Translations under genes and position numbers: made by a program | Part shown: positions 14,859 through 30,123 of the stretch, one piece after another | Numbering within the stretch: the stretch's first letter is position 1 | Layout: each line of letters begins with the position of its first letter | Notes under the pieces: model-generated | The model's input: only the letters and a program-made list of their open reading frames with translations | Database searches by the model: none | What the model was told of the DNA's origin: nothing | NCBI GenBank assembly: GCA_007125075.1 | Contig: SLDX01000001.1 | Coordinates: forward strand, 16,539-80,538 | Direction of reading: 5' to 3' | Length of the DNA: 64,000 nucleotides | DNA from: Desulfonatronospira sp. | GTDB lineage: Bacteria; Desulfobacterota; Desulfovibrionia; Desulfovibrionales; Desulfonatronovibrionaceae

Positions 14859-15189
14859 GTTGAATACCTGGATACCATCAGTTGCACAAACGGTCAATCA
14901 GGCCAACCCCGGCGCGCCTGTCTGCAGGTACAATTTTCCGGGGCCGGACAGGCAGATGATTGAGGCTTTTTTATTGTTGCCGCAAATAAAACAGTAGTTA
15001 ATTTTAAAGTAACTCCTTTCCAGATTTTTTTCCGGTTTAAAAAAACTGAGAAGCGGTGTTCAATACTGATCCGGAAGAATGTTTGCATAAAATACACTTT
15101 GATCAATCTCCTGCAGCTATTTCCTGCAGCAGCCCGGGGCTCGCAAAGCAGGGACTGCTCAGGAATTATTTAAGGCTTTGATTGCCGCC

Positions 15190-16590
15190 ATGGATGTTTC
15201 ACTGTTTTTGTATAATCTGATCAAAGCAATGGCCATGCGCCGCACGCGCCTGCGCAGCATCAGAAGGGTTCCCCGTTCCGAAATCCTTGCCCTGCAGCGC
15301 AGGCGCCTGGCTCACCTTCTGGAGTACGCCGCAAAGACGTCTTCTTTTTACCGCCGCCGCTGGAATGCAAGGGTACCACAGCCCGAAGATCTGTCCCGGC
15401 TTGAGCCTCTGGATAAGACAACGCTTATTGAACACTATGATGAAGTCCTGAGCGTTAAAGACCTGAGCCTGGATGACACCAGAAAATGGCTGAACGGAAA
15501 ACAGGATGCTCAACCTAAAAAATATATCTTCGCGGCTACTTCCGGAACTACCGGGCAACCCCTGGTCATTCCTTACCGGCTCAATGAATGGCGCGAAGGT
15601 ATGGCCTATATTATCAGAAGTGCAGAACTGGCCATTGAAGGCACCTGGGGCAGGGGCAGCGACCCGCTGTCCCTTCTTTACCTGATGCGCAAGCGCCCCA
15701 GAATTGCCGGGGTGAGCACTTTAAACCCTATTCATGTCAGCGCCCGGCTGACCAGAAGCTTTCGCGCAGGTATTGTGCCCAGCCTGCTTCTTTCCGCAGG
15801 AACGCCTCTGGAGCAGCAGCTGGAAGAGCTGAACCGCTTCAAGCCCACTGTGCTGGGAGGCTATCCGTCGGCAATAGCTCCTCTGGTAAAGGCAGCAGAA
15901 AAAAATAAACTGCACATAAGTCCAGAGCTGATAGTCACCGGAGGAGAAACCGTATCTCAGGCCCTGCGCCGGCTGGTGCGGAAAGTCTGGGGTCTTGAGC
16001 TTTTCGATTATTACGGCCTGGCCGAAACTCTGGTCATTGCGGGAGAGTGCCGCAGGCATCAGGGCCTGCACATCTATGAGGATGCCGTAGTTCTTGAAGT
16101 GGTCGATGAACAGGGCAAGCCTCTTCCGCCGGGCAAAACTGGACACAGTGTCCTGCTGACCTGCCTGTTCAACAAAACACTGCCCGTGATCCGCTATGAT
16201 GTCGGGGACATACTCTCTGTAAACGAGGAACCCTGTGCCTGCGGAACGCCCTTAAAACGCATAGTCTCCCTGGAGGGGAGAAAAGATGAACTGCTTGTTC
16301 TGCGCAGAAAAAACGGACAGCCGGTTGAGGTGCATCCGATTGTATTTGAGTCCGCTTTGCTGGGAATGGCTGAAATACGGCAGTTTCAGATTGACGTCCT
16401 TGCCGGGGAAAAGGTGCGCATCACCATCGTCCCTCATGGACACGCCGGAGATACCGTGCCCAAAGCTTTGTCAGCCCTGTCTGAAGCTCTATCACCTCTG
16501 GGGATCGGCGAGGATGTGCTCCAGATCAGGACCGCAACAGGCATCAAGAGCAGAAGAGGTCCCACTGACAAGCTGCTCCTTCGAACCTGA
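15190..16590 (+). CDS. Phenylacetate-CoA ligase family (PaaK/CapK-like) adenylate-forming enzyme
   Basis: ATSGTTGQP P-loop, YYGLAET, PVIRYDVGD and LEGRKDE motifs. Start at ATG 15190 or TTG 15178. Confidence 0.8.
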   Translation: MDVSLFLYNLIKAMAMRRTRLRSIRRVPRSEILALQRRRLAHLLEYAAKTSSFYRRRWNARVPQPEDLSRLEPLDKTTLIEHYDEVLSVKDLSLDDTRKWLNGKQDAQPKKYIFAATSGTTGQPLVIPYRLNEWREGMAYIIRSAELAIEGTWGRGSDPLSLLYLMRKRPRIAGVSTLNPIHVSARLTRSFRAGIVPSLLLSAGTPLEQQLEELNRFKPTVLGGYPSAIAPLVKAAEKNKLHISPELIVTGGETVSQALRRLVRKVWGLELFDYYGLAETLVIAGECRRHQGLHIYEDAVVLEVVDEQGKPLPPGKTGHSVLLTCLFNKTLPVIRYDVGDILSVNEEPCACGTPLKRIVSLEGRKDELLVLRRKNGQPVEVHPIVFESALLGMAEIRQFQIDVLAGEKVRITIVPHGHAGDTVPKALSALSEALSPLGIGEDVLQIRTATGIKSRRGPTDKLLLRT

Positions 16591-17126
16591 GATAGTTTTC
16601 TGCCTGTTCATAAGTGCATAAGATCAGAAGCTTTCTGCAGCCATTATCAAGTTACTGCTTGAATTTATTTGCAGCGGTTCTGAACAATTATGTCTTTGAA
16701 TAAACTGGAAAGGTTTACTTTGAACTTTTTCTTTCCAGCATGCATCTCTCAGGCTGCCGGGGCAACCCTGAATGCCAGCTCCAGAAACTGTTTCGTTTTT
16801 TTTCTTAAAACCTGCCAAACTCTGCCTGCATTCCTTTTTGCAGACAACTGAGCAGAAGACGTGCGGAATATCGCTCATTGACCTGGACCTGGCGGCGCTG
16901 CAAAGGATTGAAATCCTGTTTCGAGTTTTGCAAAAAAATGTTGCTCTGAGTGCTGATGAGCTGTAGTTTAAAAAGAACTGCATGAAGTGTTTGATTCAAG
17001 TGTACAGATAAATGTTGCTCACTTCTGATTTTCTGTATTCATTGCTGAGAATATATTTCAGAAATCAACAATGACCAGAAAATAGATATCCAGGCATGAA
17101 ATTAATATACAGCATAAGGTTAAGAT

Positions 17127-18689
17127 ATGAGATTATTGCACTTGTTCCGTGATTCCATCACAGTAAAAGTCATCTCATTGATTTCACTATTGGCGGTTAT
17201 CGTTTTTATAGTTTTGATTATTGTGAATTCTTACTGGCAAAGAGAGGATACAATAAATCAGATACAGTACATGGGACTTAGAACAACGGATCTTATAGAG
17301 CTCAACATTGAAGAACCAATGCTGATGGGAGACAACCTGGGAACCCACGAACAATTCGCAAGAATTGATAAGCTGTACGATGATCTTACGGTTTATCTGA
17401 CTGATTTTCGGGGTAATATCACCTATTCCACACGCAGGGATATGCTGCGCCAGGATGTAGATACAGTATACCCGGGCCGGACAGTGTCCAGGGCGGTCCA
17501 CGACAGTCTGAGCAGAGAGCTGGAAAGATCCGTCCTGGTGGAACTGGATGAAGGCTCCTTTTTCATGACCGTGCGTTCAGTGCCCAATGAATTCGATTGT
17601 TATCACTGCCACGGCAGTTCCCAGCCCATCCTGGGCAGCATGCTGGTCATGCAGAACATCGATGACGACCTGGCCCTGCTTCAAAGACATCAGATTCAAA
17701 ATGTGCTTCTGGGCCTTGGCTGTCTTCTGCTTTTGATCTTCACCCTGGTGTATTTTCTGAAAAAAACGGTCATCAACCGGATAACCAGCCTGCATGAAGT
17801 GGAAATGGAGGTCAGCCGGGGCAACCTGGACGCGCAGTTCAAGGACCTGGGTTCTGATGAACTGGGAAGGCTGGCCCATGGCTTTGCGCTGATGGTCAAC
17901 ATCCTGAAGCAGAAAATAAAAGAAGCTCAGGACAAGTCGGCCCTGGCTGAAAAACAGACCAGGGAAACCAGCCTGGCCATGCGGGAACTTATGGAAACTC
18001 AAAAAAAGCTGGTCCAGTCTGAAAGGCTGGCTGCCATTGGCGAAGCTGCGGCTCATCTGTCCCATGAAATTAAAAACCCGCTTATGCTCATGGCCGGATT
18101 TGCAAGGCAGGTAAAGCGCGGGGTGCCCCAAAACAGTGCAGAGCAAAAAAAACTGGATATCATTGTTGAGGAAGCCAGGCGTCTGGAAAAAATGCTCTAT
18201 CAGGTAAGGGACTTCACCAGACCGCGAAAACTTGAAAAGGAAAAGTGCCTGCTCAATCAGTTGATCTGCGATACACTAAAAATATTTGAAGATGAATTGC
18301 GGGAAATGAGGATCAGATGTCAGCTGGACCTGGAACCTGAACTGCCCATGATATACGTGGATAAAGACCAGATCAAACAGGTCCTGCTCAATCTGATCAA
18401 AAACTCCCTGGAAGCCATGTCCTCTGAAGACACCCTGACTATAGGCTCTCGTCTGGAGGAAGGTTTCCTACGTTTGTGGGTGGAGGACACAGGGTCCGGC
18501 ATTCCTCAGGAAAACATTAAAAACATTTTCAATCCCTTCTTCACCACAAAGGAGAGGGGCTCCGGCCTGGGTCTGGCCGTCAGTTACCGCATCATTCAGG
18601 ACCATGGTGGAGACATGCATCTGGAGAGCAAGTCCGGCTTGGGAACAAGATTCATACTTTATCTGCCGGTTAATGAATCGGAAAAATAA
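17127..18689 (+). CDS. Membrane sensor histidine kinase with periplasmic c-type heme motif, HAMP, HisKA and HATPase
   Basis: Two TM helices flanking a domain with CYHCH (17598-17612); H-box LSHEIKNPL; N/G1/F/G2 boxes (NLIKNS, DTGSGI, FNPFFTTK, GSGLGL). Confidence 0.9.
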   Translation: MRLLHLFRDSITVKVISLISLLAVIVFIVLIIVNSYWQREDTINQIQYMGLRTTDLIELNIEEPMLMGDNLGTHEQFARIDKLYDDLTVYLTDFRGNITYSTRRDMLRQDVDTVYPGRTVSRAVHDSLSRELERSVLVELDEGSFFMTVRSVPNEFDCYHCHGSSQPILGSMLVMQNIDDDLALLQRHQIQNVLLGLGCLLLLIFTLVYFLKKTVINRITSLHEVEMEVSRGNLDAQFKDLGSDELGRLAHGFALMVNILKQKIKEAQDKSALAEKQTRETSLAMRELMETQKKLVQSERLAAIGEAAAHLSHEIKNPLMLMAGFARQVKRGVPQNSAEQKKLDIIVEEARRLEKMLYQVRDFTRPRKLEKEKCLLNQLICDTLKIFEDELREMRIRCQLDLEPELPMIYVDKDQIKQVLLNLIKNSLEAMSSEDTLTIGSRLEEGFLRLWVEDTGSGIPQENIKNIFNPFFTTKERGSGLGLAVSYRIIQDHGGDMHLESKSGLGTRFILYLPVNESEK

Positions 18690-18872
18690 TACAGAACATC
18701 ATGATCAGGTTGCACCTGCTGAAAGTCTTTTTGTCAGGCTTTACGAGTCACAGGGGCAAGGATTCAGGGTTCAGCAATTCAAATGTTGTCAGTGCGAACC
18801 AGATTCAAAATTTAAACTTTCGGCATTTGCAGGTACATTTGATCAATTATCAGCTCCCGGTATTCAGATTGT

Positions 18873-19934
18873 TTAAAAAAGACCGTACCTGTGCAGCTTG
18901 CGATAAATGGTTCTCCTGGATACCCCAAGCAGTCTGGCTGCTTCAGCCTTCTTGCCCAGCGCAGCCTCAAGGGCGCAGACCAGTTTTTCCCGTTCAGCCG
19001 CGCCTGAGTCCTGCTGGTGCCTGGCCCCGGCATTATGCTCCAGAATTTCTTCCGGCAGGTGTTCCGGTTCGACCATTTCTTCAGAGCAAAGCAATACACC
19101 GTGCTCCAGAGCGTGTTCAAGCTGGCGCACATTTCCCGGCCAGGGATAATCAAGCAGAATGCGCATGGCCTCCGGCGAAACTCCTTGAACGGGTTTCTTA
19201 AACTTCTCAGCATAAAGCCTGCAGAAATGATCAACAAGAAGGGGTATGTCCCCGGCTCTTTCCCGCAAACGGGGCATGTGGATATTCACCACCTTGAGAC
19301 GGTAATAAAGATCTTTGCGAAAACTTCCCTCAGCCACCTTACGCACCAGATCGGCATTGGTCGCGGCCACTATGCGCACGTCAGCCTTGCTCGTTTTTGA
19401 TTCTCCAACACGTTCATACTCCTTCTCCTGAAGAAAACGCAGAAGCTTAAGCTGGATATGCTGTGAGAGATCCCCGATTTCATCGAGGAATAATGTTCCA
19501 TTCTGAGCAGCCTCCACCCTGCCGGTCCTGTCGGTATGCGCCCCGGTAAACGCTCCCCGGACATGCCCGAAAAGTTCGCTGTCCAGAAGATTTTCAACCA
19601 GAGCCAGACAGTTGACCTTGATCTTGGGTCCTTTCCTGCGCGGACTTATGGCGTGCAGAGCCTCGGCGACGAGTTCCTTGCCTGTGCCGGTCTCTCCGGT
19701 GATGAGCAAGGTGGTGTCCACCCCGGCCACCTGCTGCAGCAATGTGAACAGATTCCGCATCTGCCTGCTGCGGCCGATAAGTTTATGAAAAGAATTCATG
19801 GGACAGGAATGCTGCTGACCATAAAATTGCGGATCAGGCTTCTTTAATTTGCCCTGACTGAGCAAATCCCTCTCCGGCAAGTCCCACAGCGGAACAGTGG
19901 AGGAATCTTTCCGGATTATTGGCAAATACTGCAT
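18873..19934 (-). CDS. Sigma54-dependent enhancer-binding protein lacking an N-terminal sensory/receiver domain
   Basis: AGGAGG RBS before ATG 19934; ~45-aa leader, then GETGTGKE, GAFTGA, LFLDEIG, FRKDLYYRL, WPGNVRQL and a Fis-type HTH. Confidence 0.9.
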   Translation of the reverse strand: MQYLPIIRKDSSTVPLWDLPERDLLSQGKLKKPDPQFYGQQHSCPMNSFHKLIGRSRQMRNLFTLLQQVAGVDTTLLITGETGTGKELVAEALHAISPRRKGPKIKVNCLALVENLLDSELFGHVRGAFTGAHTDRTGRVEAAQNGTLFLDEIGDLSQHIQLKLLRFLQEKEYERVGESKTSKADVRIVAATNADLVRKVAEGSFRKDLYYRLKVVNIHMPRLRERAGDIPLLVDHFCRLYAEKFKKPVQGVSPEAMRILLDYPWPGNVRQLEHALEHGVLLCSEEMVEPEHLPEEILEHNAGARHQQDSGAAEREKLVCALEAALGKKAEAARLLGVSRRTIYRKLHRYGLF

Positions 19935-20047
19935 TCCCTGCCTCCTTAGTCTTTCCAGTTTCACAGATCCTTTAAAAGACCTGCAACTTTAATCCCCTGC
20001 CATGGTGTTGTCAGTCAGCAAAGCGCATGATGCTCAAAAATAATACT

Positions 20048-20063
20048 AGCAAGGCAGATGCCA
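20048..20063 (-). promoter_or_regulatory. Sigma54 (-24/-12) promoter of the input-less EBP gene
   Basis: TGGCATCTGCCTTGCT with GG-N10-GC spacing; predicted TSS ~20037. Confidence 0.75.
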
Positions 20064-20113
20064 GAATCTTTTTCAGCAGAAATAAGCGGATTCATGTCTC
20101 AGGGATCCGAACA

Positions 20114-20150
20114 TGACAAAATTTTGCGCTCGAGTTACGTTTCTTGCGCA
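20114..20150 (-). promoter_or_regulatory. Tandem upstream activator sites (UAS) for promoter 20048-20063
   Basis: Plus-strand TGACAAAATTTTGCGCT (20114-20130) and GTTACGTTTCTTGCGCA (20134-20150), matching the pair at 21743-21780. Confidence 0.6.
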
Positions 20151-20391
20151 CCCAGAGCTTGACTGCAATGATCCATGAATCAAAAGGTTCCCTGGACGGT
20201 TTTCAGCCTACCCTGAATCCGTGAAAACAGGCTGCGAAAAATGACTTCACTGATTCAGCGCCTACCACAAAATCCGGTCTGTCCAGGAGCATGCAGCTGG
20301 ACCTTTTGAAAACCGGACTTAATGATTAAGGACAGTACCGGTGAGGTCAGTTGTCAGGTGAAAAGATGAAGGAAGGGTAAGAGATTTTTGG

Positions 20392-21303
20392 CTATGAATT
20401 CTCTAGAGCCAGCTCGGGGTATACTTTCTGGAGGAAGCTCAGCTGGGAATTATTAAATCCCTTAACTATTCCTGGTTCAAGATTCAAAAAGTAATTTACG
20501 GCTTTGCCGCTTAAATTGTTATGCAGCAGCATCAGCTGAAAATTTCCCGCCTGCCTATACTCTTTGTATCTCTTGTATGTGTTGCTGGTCAGTTTATATA
20601 TGTAATCGTACAAGGGTATTTTGGATGGCAGCCTGTTGCATAAATCCATCATGCACTGCAAAGATTTATACACATTTGCACGCAGACCGACTGCCGGAGC
20701 GTTTACTTTGGAATAATAACGCTCAGGCCCGAACGCTTCAAAAGGAAAAAGCTTCGTATAGAATTTCTTATGTCTTGGATGGACCATTATACATATGTCA
20801 TCTACACCATGATACAGGCAATACCAGTAAATCGCCTGTATCTGATACAGAAATATCTTCTTGTTCCTGAACTGGCAACTGGTAGCTAGAGAAGATATTT
20901 CTACAATACTGCGTCCCCTGTCTCTGAGGATATCCAGTTCAGGTCTGTATAAAGCATCCATTGGCAGGCCGAACTCTTCAGAACTTTGAATTCCTGTCAG
21001 ATTGGAAACCGCTTTTTGATGATCACTTGCAACAGCATGAACAGTTCCTGGAAGAAGGGAATAAACTGAAAAAAGCATTCCATGATCTTTTTCTTCAGGA
21101 ACAAGACCTCTTTTCAGGTAGCTTTCATATACCAGTGAAAATATTTTTTCCAGGTCATAGGTGCAGCTTGCGTATTTGATGTCAAGACTGCTCATCTCAA
21201 TTTCATTAAAACCGGATACTCTGAGCCGTGCATCCTGATCACTGTTTAAAGTATCATATTTAATGTTGTCATATGAATTTTGCAAATCTGGTAAGTGACC
21301 CAT
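20392..21303 (-). CDS. FeeM-like N-acyl amino acid synthase (GNAT fold)
   Basis: LVYESYLKRG, FGLPMDALYRPELDILRDRGRSIVEISSLA, DDICIMVHPRHKKFY and YYSKVNAPAVGL resemble the FeeM/NAS family. GAGG RBS 8 nt before ATG 21303. AT-rich. Confidence 0.72.
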   Translation of the reverse strand: MGHLPDLQNSYDNIKYDTLNSDQDARLRVSGFNEIEMSSLDIKYASCTYDLEKIFSLVYESYLKRGLVPEEKDHGMLFSVYSLLPGTVHAVASDHQKAVSNLTGIQSSEEFGLPMDALYRPELDILRDRGRSIVEISSLATSCQFRNKKIFLYQIQAIYWYCLYHGVDDICIMVHPRHKKFYTKLFPFEAFGPERYYSKVNAPAVGLRANVYKSLQCMMDLCNRLPSKIPLYDYIYKLTSNTYKRYKEYRQAGNFQLMLLHNNLSGKAVNYFLNLEPGIVKGFNNSQLSFLQKVYPELALENS

Positions 21304-21675
21304 AATAAGCACCTCGAATATATTAGATGTTGATCATTAATACAAAATACGCCAAGAATTAATTATATAACTGTATTAATATATGCAAACATAAAACGCT
21401 ATCAAACTGGATAATAAATAATTAAATATTAATAATTGTTAAAGGTTGCTCATATTTTACAATGAATTCTTTAATTTCTGCATTAAAAATGCCTTCCAAA
21501 AATTTTATCATTGATAATCTTCAGACTTCAACGTCAGCTTGCTCAGACACTGGACTGTTGATGTAAATATTTCGCTGGTTTTTCTAATGGAAAAACATGG
21601 AAATTAACTCGAAAATGAATTAGCATGGATTGCATTGAGATTAATGTCCGCCTGAAGGCAAATCGGGAACGCTCA

Positions 21676-21691
21676 TGCAATCCAGGTGCCA
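21676..21691 (-). promoter_or_regulatory. Sigma54 (-24/-12) promoter directed at the feeM-like gene
   Basis: TGGCACCTGGATTGCA, near-consensus with GG-N10-GC; predicted TSS ~21665. Confidence 0.78.
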
Positions 21692-21742
21692 ACAATTGTG
21701 TCCAGTAAAAATAATTGCTTGCAAATTTTTGTTTGTCTGCTC

Positions 21743-21780
21743 AAAACAAATTTTGTACATTTGGTTACAAATTTTGCGCA
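21743..21780 (-). promoter_or_regulatory. Tandem upstream activator sites (UAS) for promoter 21676-21691
   Basis: AAAACAAATTTTGTACA (21743-21759) and GTTACAAATTTTGCGCA (21764-21780), 21-bp period; also contains TTTGT-N10-ACAAA. Confidence 0.62.
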
Positions 21781-22035
21781 CCGGGGTTTAAGCAAGGTAA
21801 TTATTTTTCCTGAATTTTTTTTAACCCTATAAAACCTGTTTCTTATCCTGATATATACGTCCTGAGATGTAAGCATGACGACTTAGAAACCTTCAGGCCG
21901 AATCCGGGCAGCTTGCAGGGCAGGACGCACATAATGCCTTACAGGAATAATCCTGGAACTTTTTTTAGAAGGTCATCAAGCTGCAGCTGATATTTTTTAT
22001 AAATATTTCAGAGACATAGGAGATTTATTACGCCT

Positions 22036-23505
22036 ATGAAACATACTTTTTCGCGGATGAGCATCACCGCAAGACTTTTATCCTGGTCTCTGGTCCTGAT
22101 GCTGATCTTTTACTCAATAACCATATACTTTTTTTTCAGTATAAGAGATCTGGTTTCGACCACCGACCGGATAGTGAACAAGGATCTGGAAGTAGTCGCG
22201 ATCACAGAGCAGCTGGTTGATACCACTCTTCTTTTTGTTGAAAACCGCAGAAAATACCAGATTCTGGGACGGGAACAGTATTTTGAAGCTTCTCTTAATC
22301 ACCTTAATCTGCTGGAAGAGCTCCTGGAGGATCTGCCGAGGGATTTTTCCTTTGCCGGAATCAATCCCGAGGTGCGGGAACTGGTCCTGAACATGGAAGA
22401 GTTCGGTTCATCCCCGGTACAAGATATCTCCCTGCCCAGCGAAGAGGCCCTGTCCTCGTGGATCCAGGACATAACCAACCTGCGGGCAAGCTATCTGGAA
22501 AACGTCAATGACCGGATGCAGAGCATGTATGTCCGGGGTGTTCAGGCTCAGACCTTCGGCTTTCTAGGCCTGGGCCTGGTTGCTTTTCTGGCCATTGCAG
22601 GCAGCCTGGCAATTGCTTTTTTTCTCAACAGGTCAATGCGTGAATTCAGAAAAGGTCTATTCAGACTGGCCCGCAACGAAGAATTCGAACCGGTCAGAGT
22701 AACTTCTCACGGAGAACTTGGTGAACTGGCCCGGGCATTCAACAAAATGGGCTTGAAACTCAAACGGGAGGAGGAAATGCGCTCCCAGTTCATATCCACC
22801 CTGAGCCATGAGATAAGAACGCCTTTAACCAGCATCATGGAGTCCATTAACCTGGTCCGGGACGGTGTGGCAGGCAACAGCCGTGACGCACAATCCAGGT
22901 TTCTGGACATAGCCCACAAAGAGACCCTGAGACTCTCAGAGCTTTTACAGCGCCTTATGCAGACCGCTACCATGGAATCCGGAAGCATACAGCTGGAACC
23001 GGGAGAAATCGCTATTGACAAACTCCTCTGGGATGGGGTTGACAGAATATATCCGACAGCCAGGGCTGCAGACGTGCGGGTCAAGGTAGTCAGCAGCGGT
23101 ACCGGCAGAAATGTGATGGCGGACATCAGCCATGTCCAGCAGGTTCTTTTTAATCTCCTGGGCAATGCAGTGAAATTTTCTCCTCCCGGTTCAGAAGTGA
23201 TTCTTTCATACGAACCCTGCGCCCAGGGAAATACCCTGCAGATCTGCGTTGCCGACCAGGGATCCGGAGTGTCTGAGGATGAAAAGGATCTGGTCTTCGA
23301 GCGCTACTACTGCGGAAAGAATACGAAGAACATTACTGATGGTGCAGGGCTGGGCCTGAGCATTTCCAGACAGATAATCAGAGCCCATGGAGGTGATCTG
23401 TGGCTGGAAAGCACCTCTTCGGCGGGAAGCATGTTCTGCTTCACACTTCCTCTGGCTGATGAACGAAACAAAGACAACAGGGTAGACCATGAGCATACTG
23501 TATAA
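22036..23505 (+). CDS. HAMP-domain sensor histidine kinase (GlrK/QseE-like position)
   Basis: Two TMs, helical periplasmic domain, HAMP, LSHEIRTPL, NLLGNAVKF, DQGSGV and GAGLGL. Confidence 0.9.
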   Translation: MKHTFSRMSITARLLSWSLVLMLIFYSITIYFFFSIRDLVSTTDRIVNKDLEVVAITEQLVDTTLLFVENRRKYQILGREQYFEASLNHLNLLEELLEDLPRDFSFAGINPEVRELVLNMEEFGSSPVQDISLPSEEALSSWIQDITNLRASYLENVNDRMQSMYVRGVQAQTFGFLGLGLVAFLAIAGSLAIAFFLNRSMREFRKGLFRLARNEEFEPVRVTSHGELGELARAFNKMGLKLKREEEMRSQFISTLSHEIRTPLTSIMESINLVRDGVAGNSRDAQSRFLDIAHKETLRLSELLQRLMQTATMESGSIQLEPGEIAIDKLLWDGVDRIYPTARAADVRVKVVSSGTGRNVMADISHVQQVLFNLLGNAVKFSPPGSEVILSYEPCAQGNTLQICVADQGSGVSEDEKDLVFERYYCGKNTKNITDGAGLGLSISRQIIRAHGGDLWLESTSSAGSMFCFTLPLADERNKDNRVDHEHTV

Positions 23506-24160
23506 ATTAAGATATGGATATCGATTTGCCTGGCCGGTGCTGCTGCTTATAATCCTTATGACCGGCTGTGTGGGGATCAAAAGCGATAACAGGGACACTC
23601 CGGCGACACGGCAAGGCCTGTTATTGACGGATCCGGGGGGTGAATACCTGCAGACTGCACTGGCCGGTTTTGCGGCGGGCAACTATCTGGAGGCAAGAAA
23701 GGATTTCCTGCAGGCAAAAAATAACACAGACAACCCAAAGATAAGCAGTCAGGCTGAATTCGGGATAATTCTGACCAGAATGCTCAGCGCTGAAAATCTT
23801 ACTGAGTTCAGCATCCACCAGAGAAATTTTGAACAATTTTTAGACCGGGACGATGAAAAGTATCTGCCGGACCGGAAGATGACTGCTCCATTCGTATCTG
23901 CCATGGCTGATAATCTACTCATGAAAAAGAGAATAGAATCATTGCAGGCCGATTACAGAAAAGCTCTTGATCAGCTGCACCAGGCAGAAGACGACAAGGA
24001 AGCTCTCAAGACCCGGTATAATATAAGCATGCGCAAATTAAGCGAACTGGAAGAAAAGAATCAAAGCCTTAAGAATCAGATTAAAGAGCTGGAAGAGCTC
24101 TTTGAGTTGATTGATCAACAAAAACGTCTCCTTGAACAAAATGAATCAAGACAAAGATAA
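23489..24160 (+). CDS. Lipoprotein with TPR-like helices and C-terminal coiled coil (QseG/YfhG-like position)
   Basis: Lipobox LMTG|C; overlaps both the kinase and the regulator genes; heptad-rich C-terminus. Confidence 0.75.
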   Translation: MSILYKLRYGYRFAWPVLLLIILMTGCVGIKSDNRDTPATRQGLLLTDPGGEYLQTALAGFAAGNYLEARKDFLQAKNNTDNPKISSQAEFGIILTRMLSAENLTEFSIHQRNFEQFLDRDDEKYLPDRKMTAPFVSAMADNLLMKKRIESLQADYRKALDQLHQAEDDKEALKTRYNISMRKLSELEEKNQSLKNQIKELEELFELIDQQKRLLEQNESRQR

Positions 24161-25508
24161 GAACAACGACCTGTATTCAATCCTGGTAGTCGATGATGAC
24201 GAGAGCATCCTTCAGCTCCTGGAGGCCCGTCTTTCAGCGGCCGGCTACCAGGTAACCACCGCCTGTAACGGCACACAGGCTCTGGAAATGATGGAGCTGC
24301 TGCCTTTTGATCTTGTCCTGACCGATGTCAAAATGCCCGGGCTGGACGGCCAGGAACTGCTCGCGGAAATAAAAAGGACCTGGCCGGGAATTCCGGTGAT
24401 GCTGCTCACAGCATATGGAAACATACCTGATGCGGTTAAAGCCATTCAACTTGGAGCTGCCGATTATCTGACCAAGCCCTTTGACGGACAGGAGCTTGTG
24501 TCCGGAATCAAGGACCTGCTTGCCAGGACATATCCTACTGTAAACGCGGAACTGGTTGAAGAATGCGGTATTGTCTGCGGAAAAAGCTCTTCCATGTCCA
24601 CCCTTCTCCGGATGATGCACAGAATTGCCGGCAGCGATGTCTCTATTTTGATTCAGGGAGAATCAGGAACCGGCAAGGAACTGGTGGCCAACGCCATCCA
24701 CAAATGGAGCAGCCGCAGTAAAGGACCATTCGTAGTCATCGATTGTGGATCGACTCAGACCACTCTTATTGAGAGCGAACTTTTCGGGCATGTAAAAGGC
24801 GCTTTCACTCATGCGGTCCAGGACAAGAAGGGCCTTATCGAGACCGCTCACAAAGGGACACTGTTCTTTGATGAGATCGGAAATATTTCCATGGAGATGC
24901 AGACCAGGCTTCTGCGCTTCCTGCAGGAAAGGACGCTTAGAAGAGTCGGGGATACCCGCTCAATTGAGGTTGACTGCAGAATCCTGGCCGCGACCAATGC
25001 CAACCTGAGTGAAATGGTCAGATCAGGCGCTTTCAGAGAAGACCTGTTCTACAGGCTTAAAGTAGTCAGGCTGGAAGTTCCGGCGCTGCGCCAGCGCATC
25101 GAAGACCTGCCCCTTCTGACAGATTATTTTTTGAACATCTTAAAAAGCAGGCATGAAATTGGAAATCTTGAATTAACCCCTGCTGCACTGGAAAAAATGC
25201 ATGAACATGCCTGGCCTGGAAATGTGAGAGAGCTGTTCAATGTGCTGGAGGCGGGAGCGCTTCTATCCCCGGACGGGCTGATCAAGCCTGAGGACCTTCA
25301 GCTGGAACATGCTTTTGCTGAAATTGAGCAGGCCGATGAATCCTTTTCCCTGGATGAAAATGAAAAAAAGGCGGTTATTCGAGCACTGGAAAAAACCGGC
25401 TGGGTGCAGAAGCGAGCCGCTGAAATACTGGGAATAAGCAGAAGGGCCATACATTACAAGATTCGCAAGCACAATATTGCCATTCCATCCCGGTGCTCAA
25501 GCAAATGA
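24141..25508 (+). CDS. Sigma54-dependent response regulator (REC-AAA-HTH, GlrR/NtrC family)
   Basis: ILVVDDD, LTDVKMPG, YLTKPF; GESGTGKE, GAFTHA (variant of GAFTGA), FDEIG, FREDLFYRL; HTH SRRAIHYKI. Start set at ATG 24141. Confidence 0.92.
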   Translation: MNQDKDKNNDLYSILVVDDDESILQLLEARLSAAGYQVTTACNGTQALEMMELLPFDLVLTDVKMPGLDGQELLAEIKRTWPGIPVMLLTAYGNIPDAVKAIQLGAADYLTKPFDGQELVSGIKDLLARTYPTVNAELVEECGIVCGKSSSMSTLLRMMHRIAGSDVSILIQGESGTGKELVANAIHKWSSRSKGPFVVIDCGSTQTTLIESELFGHVKGAFTHAVQDKKGLIETAHKGTLFFDEIGNISMEMQTRLLRFLQERTLRRVGDTRSIEVDCRILAATNANLSEMVRSGAFREDLFYRLKVVRLEVPALRQRIEDLPLLTDYFLNILKSRHEIGNLELTPAALEKMHEHAWPGNVRELFNVLEAGALLSPDGLIKPEDLQLEHAFAEIEQADESFSLDENEKKAVIRALEKTGWVQKRAAEILGISRRAIHYKIRKHNIAIPSRCSSK

Positions 25509-25564
25509 GCAGTACCGCCTGAACGGATTGCCGACCCCTTCAGTACATTTCAGCATGAGACGGC

Positions 25565-28500
25565 TCAGAGAAGACCGTACCTGTGCAGCTTGCGGTACAG
25601 AGTTCTGCGGGAAATGCCCAGGATCCTGGCAGCCTCGGTCTTTTTTCCCTTTGCCATCCGCAGAGCATCCGCAAGACTCTCCTTGTCCACTTTTCCAACG
25701 CTTTCCTGGAGCCGGCTGGACTCTTGAACTTCAAAAATCTCATCCGGCAGGTGTTCGGGCTCTATCAGTCCTCCGGGGCAGAGCAGGGTCCCGTGTTCCA
25801 GGACATGCTCCAGCTCGCGAACGTTTCCGGGCCATGTGTGTTCGCGGAGCCTGCGCATGGTTCTGGTGGATACGCCGCGGACGGGTTTGTCGAACTTCTC
25901 CGCGAAATGCCTGCAGAAGTGATGAATAAGCATGGGGATGTCCTCGCCCCGCTCTCTGAGGCCTGGCGCCCGGATATGGATTACCTTGAGCCTGTAATAC
26001 AGGTCCCTGCGAAAGTTGCCCTCTTCTATTTTTGCGGCCAGGTCGGCATTGGTTGCGGCCACTATGCGCACGTCCGCCCTGCGGGTCTTTGATTCCCCCA
26101 CCCGTTCATACTCCTTTTCCTGGAGGAAACGCAGCAGCTTGAGCTGAATACGCCCGGTAAGATCCCCTATCTCGTCCAGAAACAGGGTTCCCCCTTCAGC
26201 CGCCTCCACCCGCCCGATCTTGTTCGCGTAGGCCCCGGTAAAGGCCCCGCGGACATGCCCGAACAGCTCGCTGTCCAGGAGCTCCTCGGACAGGGTCAGG
26301 CAGTTGACCTTGATCAGCGGGGCATTGCTGCGCGGGCTTGATGCATGCAGGGCCTCGGCGATGAGCTCCTTGCCCGTACCGGTTTCACCGGTGATGAGCA
26401 CGGTGGTGTCCACACCGGCCACCTGCTGGAGCATGGCGTATATATGCTGCATCTTCCTGCTGCGCCCGATGATGCCGTGAAATGAATTTTTCCTGGTTGA
26501 ACTCTCGAGCAGGTATTCATAGCGCTGCCTGCTTTCACGCAAAGCCTCCTCAGCCTGCTTGCGTTCGGTGATGTCGATGGCCGCCTGAAGCCTGACCATA
26601 TGTCCGTCAGTCCATCTTATGGCTATATCCTGACAATCAAACCATTTCTTTGTTTTTGTATTCTGACACTCCCAATGATAAAAGCCGGTTGACCGGCCCT
26701 GATCGTCAATCAGCCTGGAGTTTGTACAAAAGGAGCATGGCCCGCTCTGATCCGCCTGGAAAACCGCCCAGCACTTTTGGCCCACAACGTTTCCATGAGT
26801 TTTTCTGACAGCCTCATTTGTAAACAGGATCTCGTGGGACTGCATGTCCGCCACATATATATTAGAATTTGCATTATCAAGTATGGCCAGAAGAGTCTGG
26901 TGCGCTTCCCTGATCCGGCTTTCAGCCTGCTTGCGCTCTGTAATGTCCATCATCACTCCATTCCAGACAATGCACCGCTCATGCACTTTATTGGGGCTGG
27001 AATGGGCATGCACCCATTTTGTTTTCCCTTCAGGAGTAAAGATGCGCAATTCCTGCTCCCAGGGCTTAAGGGTTGTGGCTGATTCATGAATGGAGGCCAT
27101 GAACTCGTCCCTGTCCTCGGGATGGACTTTGTTTACAATCCGTTCCAGAGTCAGGGGCATATCAATATCCAGAGCAGGTTTGCCGTATATTTCCTCAATG
27201 CCGGAGCTGATATACTCTATTGACTGATTGCCGCTGTCTTCCATGAGAAACTGAAAAACCGCTCCGGGTATGCCTTCATTCACGTCCCGCAGGAACTTTT
27301 CACTGTTTCTAAGCTTTTCTTCTGCATCCAGCCTGGCCATGACATTGGAGACGATTTCAGCCAGGACCTTTAAAAGACCAATCTCTGACTCAGCAAAGGA
27401 CCTGTTCTCCTGGATGATGTCAAAGCCTACAAAGCCGGAATTTATTCCCTTGTGCATCAAAGGAATATTGACAATGGATTTGATCCCCTGGTCCTGCAGA
27501 TGGCTTCTCAGATCCACATTCCCGGATATTTCAGCAAGGTCATGGATGTAGAACGCCTTATTTTTTTGAAGGACTTCAAGAATTTCAGAAAAAAAGCTGA
27601 AGGGTATCTCCTGCAGGCTCTCAATTTCAGAACACACTCCTTCAGCGCACCATTCATGGGTGTTCCTGGTGATCTGCCGGACATGGTCGTGCATGAAAAT
27701 ATACGCCCGGTCCACGCGGGTGAACATGCCGATGGTTTCAAGCATTTCATTGAGGGCCTTGTCCACCTCCTCCAGGGAAATATTAATGAATCCGGTGGCC
27801 AGATTCATGAGCAGGCGCTGCAGAGCCTCATATTCACGCATCTTGGTTTCAGCCTGCCTGCTCTCGGTAACATCCACGCCCACAGCCCAGGTATCGATTC
27901 CTGAAAAGGTAATTTCCGGGGGCAGGTTGGACCAGAGAATGTGACGTACGCTTCCGTCCCTGGCGGTCAGGGCAAGTTCCCTGTTTTTGAACGACAGCTC
28001 TTTTTTCCATTCGCTCAGGATCTGCTCGCCAAGATCCGACTCCGGGTACAAAATGGACATGGCCTCGGGATTGCCTATTATCTCACGGCTTGAATAACCG
28101 GTTATTTCTTCACAGGCCTTGTTCCAGTAGGTAAACAGCCCCTCCTTCGTTCCGGCATTGATCATAATTGGAAGGTTTTCAACCAGGGTTTGAAATCTTT
28201 TCTCGCTTTCCCTGAGGTCCTTTTCCGTCCGCTTTGCTTCCGTAACATCCAGGGCAAAACCGATGGTTCCGGTGATTCCGCCCTGATCATCGCGGCAGGG
28301 AAATTTCTCGGTCAGGCTCCAGCCTAACTGCCCTGCTGACTTCTTGTGTCTTTCAGAAATATTTTTGAGCGGCCTGCCGGAAGTAATTACTTTCTGGTCG
28401 TCTTGACTGCATTTCCTGGCCACGCACTTGGAGTTGATATCAAAATCGGTTCTGCCCTTAAGATCTTTAAGCTCGATGCCCACGGTTTTGCAGAACAGCC

Positions 28501-29023
28501 TGTTGGCATGAATATACCGCCCCTGAACATCCTTGTACCAGACCATGACCGGAACCGTATCCAGGATGACGGACATTTCCTTGCGAGTGGCCTCAAGCTC
28601 CAGCTCTGCCCTCTTTTTTTCGGTGATGTCTGAAACAAAGCCTTGATAACAAGCTATGTTTCCCTGGCTGTCCCTTATGGCCTGAATGCTTCTGAACCCC
28701 CAGAACAAAGAACCGTCCCTGCGAAGAAACCGGCATTCATGGTTGAGCATTTCTTCTGATTTTTCCAGAAGAAGATGCATTTTTTCTCTGTCCATCGGGT
28801 CGGCATAGAGCTGGTTGGGGATGTCTGTGACTGAATCGATCATTTCTTGAGGAGAATCATAGCCGAACATCCTGGCCAGAGCGGAATTGACCAGAACAAA
28901 GCGCCCGTCAGGGGTGGAAACTGATACGCCGATGGGGGCGTTATTCAGAATCTCCTGATAGTTGAGAATGCTTAAATCCATATTTTGACATCCGTCTTGC
29001 CGCAGCAAGCTCTCGTTAAGCAT
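25565..29023 (-). CDS. Multi-sensor sigma54 enhancer-binding protein (3 PAS, GAF, 2 PAS, AAA+, HTH)
   Basis: Repeated PAS starts (ILNNAPIG, ILDTVPVM, LVENLPIM, VNEGIPGA, ILDNANSN) with DITE-type ends; GAF (VDRAYIF...THEWCAEG); intact GETGTGKE/GAFTGA/DEIG; GGAGG RBS. Confidence 0.92.
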   Translation of the reverse strand: MLNESLLRQDGCQNMDLSILNYQEILNNAPIGVSVSTPDGRFVLVNSALARMFGYDSPQEMIDSVTDIPNQLYADPMDREKMHLLLEKSEEMLNHECRFLRRDGSLFWGFRSIQAIRDSQGNIACYQGFVSDITEKKRAELELEATRKEMSVILDTVPVMVWYKDVQGRYIHANRLFCKTVGIELKDLKGRTDFDINSKCVARKCSQDDQKVITSGRPLKNISERHKKSAGQLGWSLTEKFPCRDDQGGITGTIGFALDVTEAKRTEKDLRESEKRFQTLVENLPIMINAGTKEGLFTYWNKACEEITGYSSREIIGNPEAMSILYPESDLGEQILSEWKKELSFKNRELALTARDGSVRHILWSNLPPEITFSGIDTWAVGVDVTESRQAETKMREYEALQRLLMNLATGFINISLEEVDKALNEMLETIGMFTRVDRAYIFMHDHVRQITRNTHEWCAEGVCSEIESLQEIPFSFFSEILEVLQKNKAFYIHDLAEISGNVDLRSHLQDQGIKSIVNIPLMHKGINSGFVGFDIIQENRSFAESEIGLLKVLAEIVSNVMARLDAEEKLRNSEKFLRDVNEGIPGAVFQFLMEDSGNQSIEYISSGIEEIYGKPALDIDMPLTLERIVNKVHPEDRDEFMASIHESATTLKPWEQELRIFTPEGKTKWVHAHSSPNKVHERCIVWNGVMMDITERKQAESRIREAHQTLLAILDNANSNIYVADMQSHEILFTNEAVRKTHGNVVGQKCWAVFQADQSGPCSFCTNSRLIDDQGRSTGFYHWECQNTKTKKWFDCQDIAIRWTDGHMVRLQAAIDITERKQAEEALRESRQRYEYLLESSTRKNSFHGIIGRSRKMQHIYAMLQQVAGVDTTVLITGETGTGKELIAEALHASSPRSNAPLIKVNCLTLSEELLDSELFGHVRGAFTGAYANKIGRVEAAEGGTLFLDEIGDLTGRIQLKLLRFLQEKEYERVGESKTRRADVRIVAATNADLAAKIEEGNFRRDLYYRLKVIHIRAPGLRERGEDIPMLIHHFCRHFAEKFDKPVRGVSTRTMRRLREHTWPGNVRELEHVLEHGTLLCPGGLIEPEHLPDEIFEVQESSRLQESVGKVDKESLADALRMAKGKKTEAARILGISRRTLYRKLHRYGLL

Positions 29024-29175
29024 CTTCAGCCTCCATGACTGTCGGGTCAGGGCTGGAAAGTTAATTTGAAATAAATTTTATAGATACTATAAATTATCAC
29101 AATCTATTACAACTGGCAATAAAAAACAAATATGGTTCATAAAACCGCAAGATCCTGCACTCATTCAAAACATGA

Positions 29176-30123
29176 TTAAAACCAGAAGCTCAGGACGTAG
29201 CGCCCGCCCGTGAAAACCAGAATAAAGGCCAGTATCCATTTTATCAGCTTGGCCGGAACAAATTTCTGGGTTCTGGCTCCGGCGTACATGCCGATCATCC
29301 CTCCGACGCCCATAAGCACTCCAAGCATCCAGTCCGGGGCCACGGCCATGTCCGGATAAAAAGGGGCCAGAAACTGGAAAAACAGGGCCGCCACCACTGA
29401 GGTAATAAATGTCCCCATGAGGCAGGCGCCGGCAATGGTATACACAGGGAGATGAAACACCGCCACAAAAAAAGGCGCGATTATGGCTCCGCCTCCGATA
29501 CCGTACATACCCCCCACAACTCCCACGATGGCGCTGAGAATGAATATGCCCATGGTGGGCGCGGTTATGTTTTCACCGTAAAAGGAATACTCAACAGATT
29601 TCAGGCCGAACTGATTAAGCTTCACTCTGGGTAAAGGTTCACGGGTGGCTGCGTCCATTTTGTGAAACCTGCTGACCAGTTCCTGGAACCGCCTTTCAGA
29701 GGAGGCCTTGTCAGTACCGGGGGGAGGACCTTTTATCAGGGACCGGACCATGACGTAACCGATATACAGAAGGACGACTCCGGCAAAGACACGGAAGTGG
29801 GTGGGGTCGGGAAGATATTGAATTCTGAAAAAAACGCCGATGAAAACCCCGGGCACTGTTCCGGCTATGACTATCCAGGTCAGGGGCCAGACCATTCGTC
29901 CCTCTTTGATATACCTGTAAACGCCGCTGGGTATGGCCACAATGTTGAACAGATGGTTGGTCGCGCTTACGGCCGGAGTGGTGAAGCCCAGAACGCTGAC
30001 CTGAAAGGGCAGAAGAAGATTGGCTCCGGACACGCCGCCCATACTGCACATAAAAGCCACAAAAAAACCCGCCACAAACGGAATCCAGGGAGCAACCTCG
30101 ATTTCTGCAACCGGGAAATACAT
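29176..30123 (-). CDS. TSUP (TauE/SafE) family anion permease/exporter
   Basis: SMGGVSGANLLLPF, GGMYGIGGGAIIAPF and GMYAGARTQKFVP; multiple TMs; GGAGG RBS. Confidence 0.85.
   Translation of the reverse strand: MYFPVAEIEVAPWIPFVAGFFVAFMCSMGGVSGANLLLPFQVSVLGFTTPAVSATNHLFNIVAIPSGVYRYIKEGRMVWPLTWIVIAGTVPGVFIGVFFRIQYLPDPTHFRVFAGVVLLYIGYVMVRSLIKGPPPGTDKASSERRFQELVSRFHKMDAATREPLPRVKLNQFGLKSVEYSFYGENITAPTMGIFILSAIVGVVGGMYGIGGGAIIAPFFVAVFHLPVYTIAGACLMGTFITSVVAALFFQFLAPFYPDMAVAPDWMLGVLMGVGGMIGMYAGARTQKFVPAKLIKWILAFILVFTGGRYVLSFWF

Follow-up and report, generated by a model that had tools for sequence, protein, structure and literature searches.

A conserved sigma-54 regulatory module predicted to control a FeeM-family N-acyl amino acid synthase and a truncated activator in Desulfonatronospira

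Gene content of the locus

The window analysed here is a stretch of 64 kb from contig C87 of a Desulfonatronospira metagenome-assembled genome (MAG; 2.17 Mb, 97% complete, hereafter G000); the public MAGs closest to it belong to Desulfonatronospira and Desulfonatronovibrio and come from soda-lake sediment. The window contains a gene for a FeeM-family N-acyl amino acid synthase (20395-21303, minus strand; PF21926). Divergent from it, on the plus strand, is an operon of three genes: HK2 (22036-23505), a HAMP histidine kinase; lipo223 (23489-24160), a probable lipoprotein of 223 amino acids whose lipobox cysteine is conserved in alignment; and RR_EBP (24111-25508), an NtrC-type response regulator with REC, AAA+ and Fis-type helix-turn-helix (HTH) domains. 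On the far side of FeeM is EBPshort (18873-19934, minus strand), a sigma-54 activator, or enhancer-binding protein (EBP), that consists of AAA+ and HTH domains only. Beyond the operon lies PAS_EBP (25565-29023, minus strand), a sigma-54 activator in which PAS-PAS-GAF-PAS sensory domains precede the AAA+ and HTH domains.

The functional unit spans about 6.6 kb (18873-25508), and PAS_EBP is a lineage-specific neighbor: it is linked to the module within this genus only. In the congeneric Desulfonatronospira MAG (G003, locus L023), where PAS_EBP is again adjacent, the order PAS_EBP / RR_EBP-lipoprotein-HK2 / FeeM / EBPshort is retained, as are the two promoter-enhancer modules described below. In a Desulfonatronovibrio genome (G020) FeeM (65% identity) is once more divergent from HK2, the lipoprotein gene and RR_EBP (77, 46 and 79% identity, respectively).

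Two sigma-54 promoters with matching tandem enhancers

Within the window, the -24/-12 consensus is matched best by two sites, one upstream of FeeM and one upstream of EBPshort. The FeeM promoter, TGGCACCTGGATTGCA (21676-21691, minus strand), has no mismatches and is the best site; the EBPshort promoter, TGGCATCTGCCTTGCT (20048-20063, minus strand), has one mismatch and ranks second. The former is conserved in G003 and G020, the latter in G003. Sites of this quality number only 22 genome-wide, these two included. Both have GG at -24, GC at -12, the right spacing and upstream activator sites (UAS), and the genome encodes rpoN together with 18 EBP genes.

Each promoter is preceded by a predicted tandem enhancer. 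That of FeeM (21746-21779, minus strand) comprises GCGCAAAATTTGTAAC (21779-21764) and GTACAAAATTTGT (21758-21746) and is conserved in G003 and G020; that of EBPshort (20116-20149, minus strand) comprises GCGCAAGAAACGTAAC (20149-20134) and GCAAAATTTTGT (20127-20116) and is conserved in G003. A search of both strands of the 2.17-Mb genome gives exactly two copies of the motif GCGCAA-N5-GTAAC, against a chance expectation of approximately 0.26 occurrences (for 12 fixed bases); they stand 88 nucleotides (nt) upstream of the FeeM promoter and 86 nt upstream of the EBPshort promoter. A second site, (G/A)CAAAATTT(T)GT, follows each copy after approximately 21 bp. Outside these motifs the two promoter regions are dissimilar. 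A recent segmental duplication was therefore rejected as their origin, and the shared elements, set in otherwise unrelated regions, look like maintained binding sites rather than a copied segment. The original prediction, made from the letters of the window, had proposed two matching sigma-54 promoter/UAS modules at the synthase and at an input-less activator; these data bear it out.

The arrangement is not confined to the genus. In G020 a sigma-54 promoter with a closely similar enhancer, GTGGGCAAAAACGTAAC...GTACCAAATTGGT, accompanies FeeM, and related enhancer sites are found at the same distance in G008 (locus L101), in G058 (locus L137) and in Desulfomicrobium. More broadly, at 78 Desulfobacterota loci a good -24/-12 site was present in the 700 nt upstream of 18% of FeeM-family genes, compared with 5.8% of neighboring genes (odds ratio 3.6, Fisher p = 2e-4; because these loci are interrelated, the p value overstates significance).

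Between the FeeM promoter and the FeeM start codon lies an AT-rich leader of approximately 360 nt (21304-21675, minus strand; 33% GC) that contains sigma-70-like hexamers. This raises the possibility that the main product of the promoter at 21676-21691 is a non-coding leader or a small RNA, comparable to glmY under GlrR in E. coli, with FeeM transcribed from sigma-70 promoters of its own. The length of the gap, two sigma-70-like promoters at 21405-21362 (10 of 12 matches) and the analogy to the glmY-glrK-qseG-glrR arrangement would fit such a role. Against it, no terminator was predicted in the leader and an Rfam scan of 19800-22100 at E <= 1 gave no match; the leader is poorly conserved, G020 and G028 have a shorter gap of about 160-200 nt, and sigma-70-like matches arise by chance in AT-rich DNA. 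On balance we regard the small-RNA explanation as improbable. Small open reading frames in the leader were rejected as genes because they are not conserved in G003.

The base composition of this segment (20395-22035) is unusual: GC content is 40% in the FeeM gene and 33% in the region upstream, compared with 49% for the genome, and it is likewise low in the congeneric MAG. The low-GC gene still groups with its family relatives on the tree.

A conserved kinase-lipoprotein-regulator operon

HK2 is a membrane histidine kinase with two transmembrane segments, a periplasmic domain, and HAMP, HisKA and HATPase domains. The product of lipo223 has an LxGC lipobox, in which G26 and C27 are invariant in the alignment, followed by a helical domain and a C-terminal coiled coil. 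Because the lipo223 gene overlaps both of its neighbors, the three genes are probably translationally coupled.

In at least 15 genomes, orthologs of HK2 (35-91% identity) have those of the lipoprotein and the regulator as neighbors. Of 201 genomes of the order, 19 gave lipo223 homologs in a profile search, and at every locus where tblastn detected one it lies between kinase and regulator genes. Conversely, at loci for which DNA was fetched, kinase and regulator orthologs always occur together, and the lipoprotein gene was detected between them in most. RR_EBP orthologs are 92% identical in G003, 79% in G020, 69% in G008 and approximately 57% in Desulfomicrobium. The reading helix of RR_EBP, GISRRAIHYKIRK (signature GISRRAIHYK), is retained as GISRRA(I/M)HYK(I/V)(R/K)K in orthologs down to 51% identity, and the sigma-54 contact loop reads GAFTHA in most of them, the three most distant having GAFTGA or GSFTNA. 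The GAFTHA variant is thus conserved across RR_EBP orthologs of several families; a second activator in G000 also has it.

At least nine genomes have a strong sigma-54 promoter directed away from the operon, in most cases some 250-600 nt upstream of the kinase gene, and at most of these loci an enhancer of the form G[C/T/G]GCAAAAA..TGAAAC or CGTAAC lies approximately 85-90 nt upstream of that promoter. G008, G058 and several Desulfomicrobium genomes share the operon with its divergent promoter, and the full set of operon, promoter and enhancer is seen in at least three families of the order. At L139 (genome G103) the divergent promoter is present with no obvious match to the enhancer motif. 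In G008 the kinase gene and the promoter are separated by a gene for a stand-alone receiver. Outside the order, the 20 top-scoring FeeM loci among 301 Burkholderiales genomes had no kinase-lipoprotein-EBP genes beside FeeM, and scoring of five candidates per genome gave no RR_EBP ortholog there at E <= 1e-120.

The original prediction expected the genes to travel together and a local sensory system to provide the input. The first expectation held in part: FeeM recurs with HK2, the lipoprotein gene, RR_EBP and the enhancer (the genes that failed to follow are treated below). As to the second, the conserved operon beside the promoters makes a local sensory input probable.

The short activator and the reader of the enhancer

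EBPshort has intact Walker A, GAFTGA, Walker B and HTH elements and no sensory or receiver domain. It resembles the C-terminal part of PAS_EBP (65% identity in protein, 74% in DNA), and the HTH regions of the two are nearly identical. Being sensor-less, it is presumably constitutively active once made. Two further paralogs, at C16:9405-12905 and C3:1208-2686, complete a lineage-specific clade of four sigma-54 activators with PAS_EBP (window 25565-29023) and EBPshort (18873-19934). The output modules of the four are 63-65% identical with nearly identical HTH regions, the clade was found only in this species group, and EBPshort is the member that has lost all sensory domains.

Which activator reads the shared enhancer? 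The enhancer recurs with the RR_EBP operon in genomes where the EBPshort/PAS_EBP clade was not found, and for this reason RR_EBP, not EBPshort, likely binds both enhancers of the window. Members of the clade (>60% identity) were found only in G000 and G003; G020, G008, G004 and G006 have no relative of it above 50% identity, the nearest relative of EBPshort in G020 being 47% identical. The reading helix and the GAFTHA loop of the regulator are conserved along with the enhancer, and EBPshort and its three paralogs carry another helix, RRT(I/L)YRKL(H/L)(R/K)(Y/F).

It could be argued that in this genus EBPshort, PAS_EBP or both bind the shared enhancer, instead of or besides RR_EBP, such that EBPshort would be autoregulated and PAS_EBP would co-control FeeM. 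Both Desulfonatronospira genomes do keep PAS_EBP, the sensor operon, FeeM and EBPshort side by side, PAS_EBP has no other sigma-54 promoter near it, and read-through from the FeeM promoter could add feed-forward. We nevertheless consider such binding unlikely. The enhancer is conserved where this clade was not found; 7 of the 13 reading-helix positions are different (RRTIYRKLHRY in EBPshort, RRAIHYKIRKH in RR_EBP); and the C16 paralog has the same helix as EBPshort, but the promoter adjacent to it lacks the motif.

If RR_EBP is the enhancer binder, then control of EBPshort by RR_EBP, an EBP-to-EBP cascade, is more likely than autoactivation. The self-reinforcing activator loop that had been proposed for this locus is accordingly unsupported: the enhancer tracks the RR_EBP operon in genomes where no close homolog of the EBPshort clade was found, and the helices differ.

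The FeeM-family enzyme

The synthase matches PF21926 over residues 57-213 with 144.6 bits (gathering cut-off 27; E = 2.8e-42). It consists of a GNAT/FeeM core (residues ~40-210) and a conserved helical C-terminal extension of about 90 residues (~215-294). The sole sequence match in the PDB is FeeM itself (2G0B). An AlphaFold (AF2) model built from 58 homologs (pLDDT 81) gave the 2G0B chains as Foldseek ranks 1-6, with target-normalized TM scores of 0.80-0.85, followed by acyl-homoserine lactone (AHL) synthases dependent on coenzyme A (CoA). The extension has no structural match and is conserved in the subfamily. The motif FGLPMD (residues 111-116) and Glu135 (in VEIS) align with GLPMD and LAEV of FeeM and are at least 90% conserved in the 58 homologs. 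The protein, first noticed as FeeM-like, is thus a genuine member of the FeeM family by domain, fold and catalytic motif.

Its product is most likely an N-acyl amino acid of the long-chain kind, made from acyl-ACP (acyl carrier protein) or acyl-CoA. A stand-alone N-acyl amino acid is our best guess, because the genome lacks the partners that would indicate otherwise: tblastn with the ThiF-nitroreductase part of a fused relative found no such partner in the genome (one weak ThiF match), the 97%-complete genome has no PF09721 exosortase, and PRK14852 was the only NCBIfam match at E <= 0.01, TIGR03694 not being matched. Nor does the protein appear to be a LuxI-type AHL synthase: a Pfam scan returned only FeeM, and in structure AHL synthases match it less well than FeeM does. 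No gene of the LuxR type turned up among the neighbors that were annotated. The quorum-like or bistable behavior once suggested for the locus finds no indication here, whether of a diffusible signal, a receptor, quorum behavior or bistability.

Several Desulfovibrio MAGs (loci L080:9908-12871, L084, L086:9968-13111 and L088) encode fusions of approximately 975-1050 amino acids in which a FeeM domain with the same C-terminal extension is joined to ThiF and nitroreductase domains. The fusions match NCBIfam PRK14852, a 'hypothetical protein', and by analogy look like all-in-one acyl-oxazolone synthases that follow the logic of OxzA plus OxzB.

Outputs of the sensor in other genomes

The gene behind the conserved promoter differs by genome. 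A FeeM-family gene is found there in five (G000, G003, G020, G028 and G035). It stands alone in the first four; in G035 genes for small membrane proteins and an SH3/coiled-coil protein come first, and FeeM follows. Other Desulfomicrobium genomes have the same small protein without FeeM. In G058 secreted lectin-like and NosD-like proteins are encoded behind the promoter. In all these genomes, and in G008 (below), the outputs are cell-surface or extracytoplasmic functions.

On a maximum-likelihood tree of 62 proteins of the FeeM family, a deep split separates two well-supported clades, one with the sensor-linked FeeMs of Desulfonatronovibrionaceae and the other with those of Desulfomicrobium. 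For this reason the link between sensor and FeeM appears to be either ancient or made twice, and not a chance adjacency.

In Desulfomicrobium-like loci (L131:12085-12330 and L133-L136) the first gene behind the promoter encodes a conserved protein of 81 amino acids with an N-terminal membrane helix and no Pfam match; a gene for a protein with SH3, coiled-coil and C-terminal-anchor regions comes next. No homologs of these small co-operon proteins were found in G000. In G008 (L101:12880-16188) promoter and enhancer precede an operon encoding a Zn_protease (PF05618), an inactive-transglutaminase-7TM protein and an ATP-grasp_ST protein.

Proposed mechanism

We think it probable that the HK2-lipo223-RR_EBP sensor switches on both FeeM and EBPshort through the two sigma-54 promoters. 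As judged from its architecture, HK2 together with its lipoprotein partner would sense a periplasmic or envelope cue and phosphorylate RR_EBP; comparative footprinting suggests that RR_EBP would then bind the tandem enhancer sites, approximately 85-110 nt upstream of both promoters, and activate the two. From the first promoter, transcription through the long leader would yield the FeeM-family acyltransferase and hence long-chain N-acyl amino acids. Because the genome lacks a ThiF-nitroreductase partner and an exosortase system, the product may be an envelope lipid or surfactant made on demand. The second promoter would express EBPshort, in effect a sensor-less copy of the output half of the neighboring PAS/GAF activator. 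Once expressed, EBPshort could switch on targets of the PAS_EBP paralog group, which would place those targets under the envelope sensor as well.

Five observations weigh against this account. The FeeM leader of approximately 360 nt contains sigma-70-like promoters, and sigma-54 control of FeeM could be partial. The contact loop of RR_EBP is GAFTHA, not the canonical GAFTGA. In this genus PAS_EBP and EBPshort are neighbors of the module and might themselves act through the enhancer. The FeeM subfamily has an extra C-terminal domain, and its substrates and product are predicted. Lastly, the gene behind the conserved promoter varies, and FeeM is not a universal output.

A more speculative extension is that the lipid amide produced by the divergent FeeM is itself the cue for the kinase-lipoprotein pair, which would give a sigma-54-wired autoinduction loop independent of LuxR, with EBPshort locking the response (hysteresis). 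We rate this as very unlikely. If true, the pairing of the sensor with two FeeM clades would reflect a ligand-receptor relationship.

Comparison with known systems

The closest parallel is the three-component system QseE(GlrK)-QseG-QseF(GlrR) of E. coli, which activates the sigma-54 promoters of glmY and rpoE (PMC6075780). The two share the order kinase, lipoprotein, sigma-54 response regulator in one operon (here with overlapping genes and a lipobox), a sigma-54 promoter with upstream activator sites beside the operon, and a likely envelope-related role. However, lipo223 has no detectable homology to QseG (hhalign probability 1.9%); RR_EBP is 40% identical to GlrR and scores 379 bits against NF011695 (cut-off 763), no better than against NtrC or AtoC; the enhancer of the window is not the TGTC-N10-GACA of GlrR sites; and the promoter is divergent and drives protein-coding genes, the activator having a GAFTHA loop. 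Membership in QseEGF/GlrR was therefore rejected on the grounds of absent QseG homology, a low GlrR score and a different enhancer sequence.

The synthase likewise resembles characterized enzymes in part. It shares with FeeM (2G0B) the PF21926 domain, the fold and the conserved FGLPMD...E motif; in contrast to FeeM, to which it is approximately 21% identical, it bears the helical extension of ~90 residues, lacks an adjacent ACP gene or fee-type cluster, and is under predicted sigma-54 control. Acyl-oxazolone pathways have been described as OxzA/OxzB in Pseudoalteromonas rubra and TyzABC in M. tuberculosis (PMC10404671). The Desulfovibrio proteins related to this FeeM subfamily, with ThiF and nitroreductase domains attached (~988 amino acids), display the same three-enzyme logic, whereas the FeeM of the window stands alone in a genome without a ThiF-nitroreductase partner. 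A third group comprises the N-acyl amino acid synthases associated with PEP-CTERM and exosortase (TIGR03694; Craig, Cherry and Brady 2011, as cited in PMC4897644), with PrsK/PrsR. Some Desulfobacterota relatives of FeeM do lie near PEP-CTERM, MMPL, DUF1302 and LolA-like genes; the synthase described here has no TIGR03694 match, its genome has no exosortase, and RR_EBP falls below the PrsR cut-off (352 versus 503 bits). With scores below cut-off in each case, membership in TIGR03694, PrsR and GlrR was rejected throughout.

The predicted control of EBPshort recalls NtrC-NifA cascades, in which a second sigma-54 activator is expressed from a sigma-54 promoter under the control of a first; here, unlike there, the second is a sensor-less truncation of a neighboring multi-PAS paralog. 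EBPshort under another activator would be a natural example of rewiring of a sigma-54 regulon by truncation of a paralog.

Taken together, the locus is not a new kind of system; it is a real, conserved sigma-54 regulatory module with an undescribed output, namely a FeeM-family synthase and a truncated activator. We found no literature linking such a sensor to N-acyl amino acid synthases. An envelope-type sensor with a recognizable enhancer appears wired to FeeM genes of two FeeM clades in two bacterial families. This offers a lead on the purpose of FeeM-type lipid-amide enzymes and raises the hypothesis that lipid amides are made on demand in a cell-surface or envelope response for which regulator, predicted site and promoters can be named.

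Neighboring genes and flanks of FeeM relatives

Three further genes had been counted with the synthase and its regulators as a single system of 15 kb: a PaaK/F390-like AMP-binding ligase (15178-16590, plus strand), HK1, a HAMP histidine kinase (17127-18689, plus strand), and a TauE/TSUP gene (29176-30123, minus strand). Pfam confirmed every gene in that list, and the three are unrelated neighbors. The sole ortholog of the ligase among 40 relatives is in G002, where its flanks are unlike those in the window and no FeeM match was found. Among the 78 loci with FeeM relatives, ligase-like matches occur in three, adjoining FeeM in just one (L049, PaaK-like, directly upstream); TauE and a close HK1 homolog occur in none. 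The sensor domain of HK1 is present in 30 of 41 relatives irrespective of FeeM, and HK1 was rejected as a member of the module on this basis. Since ligase, HK1 and TauE are not linked to FeeM elsewhere, the 15-kb "system" shrinks to the ~6.6-kb unit plus PAS_EBP.

These distributions bear on the circuit first envisaged, in which the whole 15 kb acts as one: the ligase would supply acyl-CoA, FeeM would make a signal that the TSUP protein exports, and EBPshort would activate itself, so that the switch would be bistable or quorum-like. In its favor, the genes lie close to one another, CoA-dependent LuxI-type enzymes come next in structural similarity to the synthase, and L049 supplies one case of a ligase upstream of FeeM. 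Set against this are the isolated ligase ortholog in a FeeM-less genome and the wide, FeeM-independent occurrence of the HK1 sensor domain. Moreover, G020, G028 and G035 have sensor and FeeM without ligase, TauE or EBPshort (in G020 none of EBPshort, PAS_EBP, ligase and TauE is nearby), and the enhancer follows RR_EBP, not EBPshort. A single circuit of this kind is, in our judgment, highly improbable.

The periplasmic domain of HK1 contains a haem-c binding motif of the CxxCH type (CYHCH; residues 158-162, window 17598-17612), which suggests a haem-based redox sensor.

The flanks of other FeeM-family genes are of some interest in their own right. An MMPL/RND-like transporter, a DUF1302 protein and a LolA-like/DUF1329 protein are found at 15-16 loci each (including L027, L029, L031, L043, L053, L055, L058, L063 and L073); other flanking genes encode PEP-CTERM proteins, PilZ, Rce1-like proteases and giant TPR proteins. 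Together they hint at dedicated export to the cell surface. At 13 loci (L025, L028 and L039-L048), mostly of Syntrophobacteraceae and other unclassified deltaproteobacterial MAGs, FeeM adjoins a gene for a FAD_binding_4 (PCMH-type) oxidoreductase of approximately 530 amino acids, which might modify the N-acyl amino acid as an alternative tailoring enzyme.

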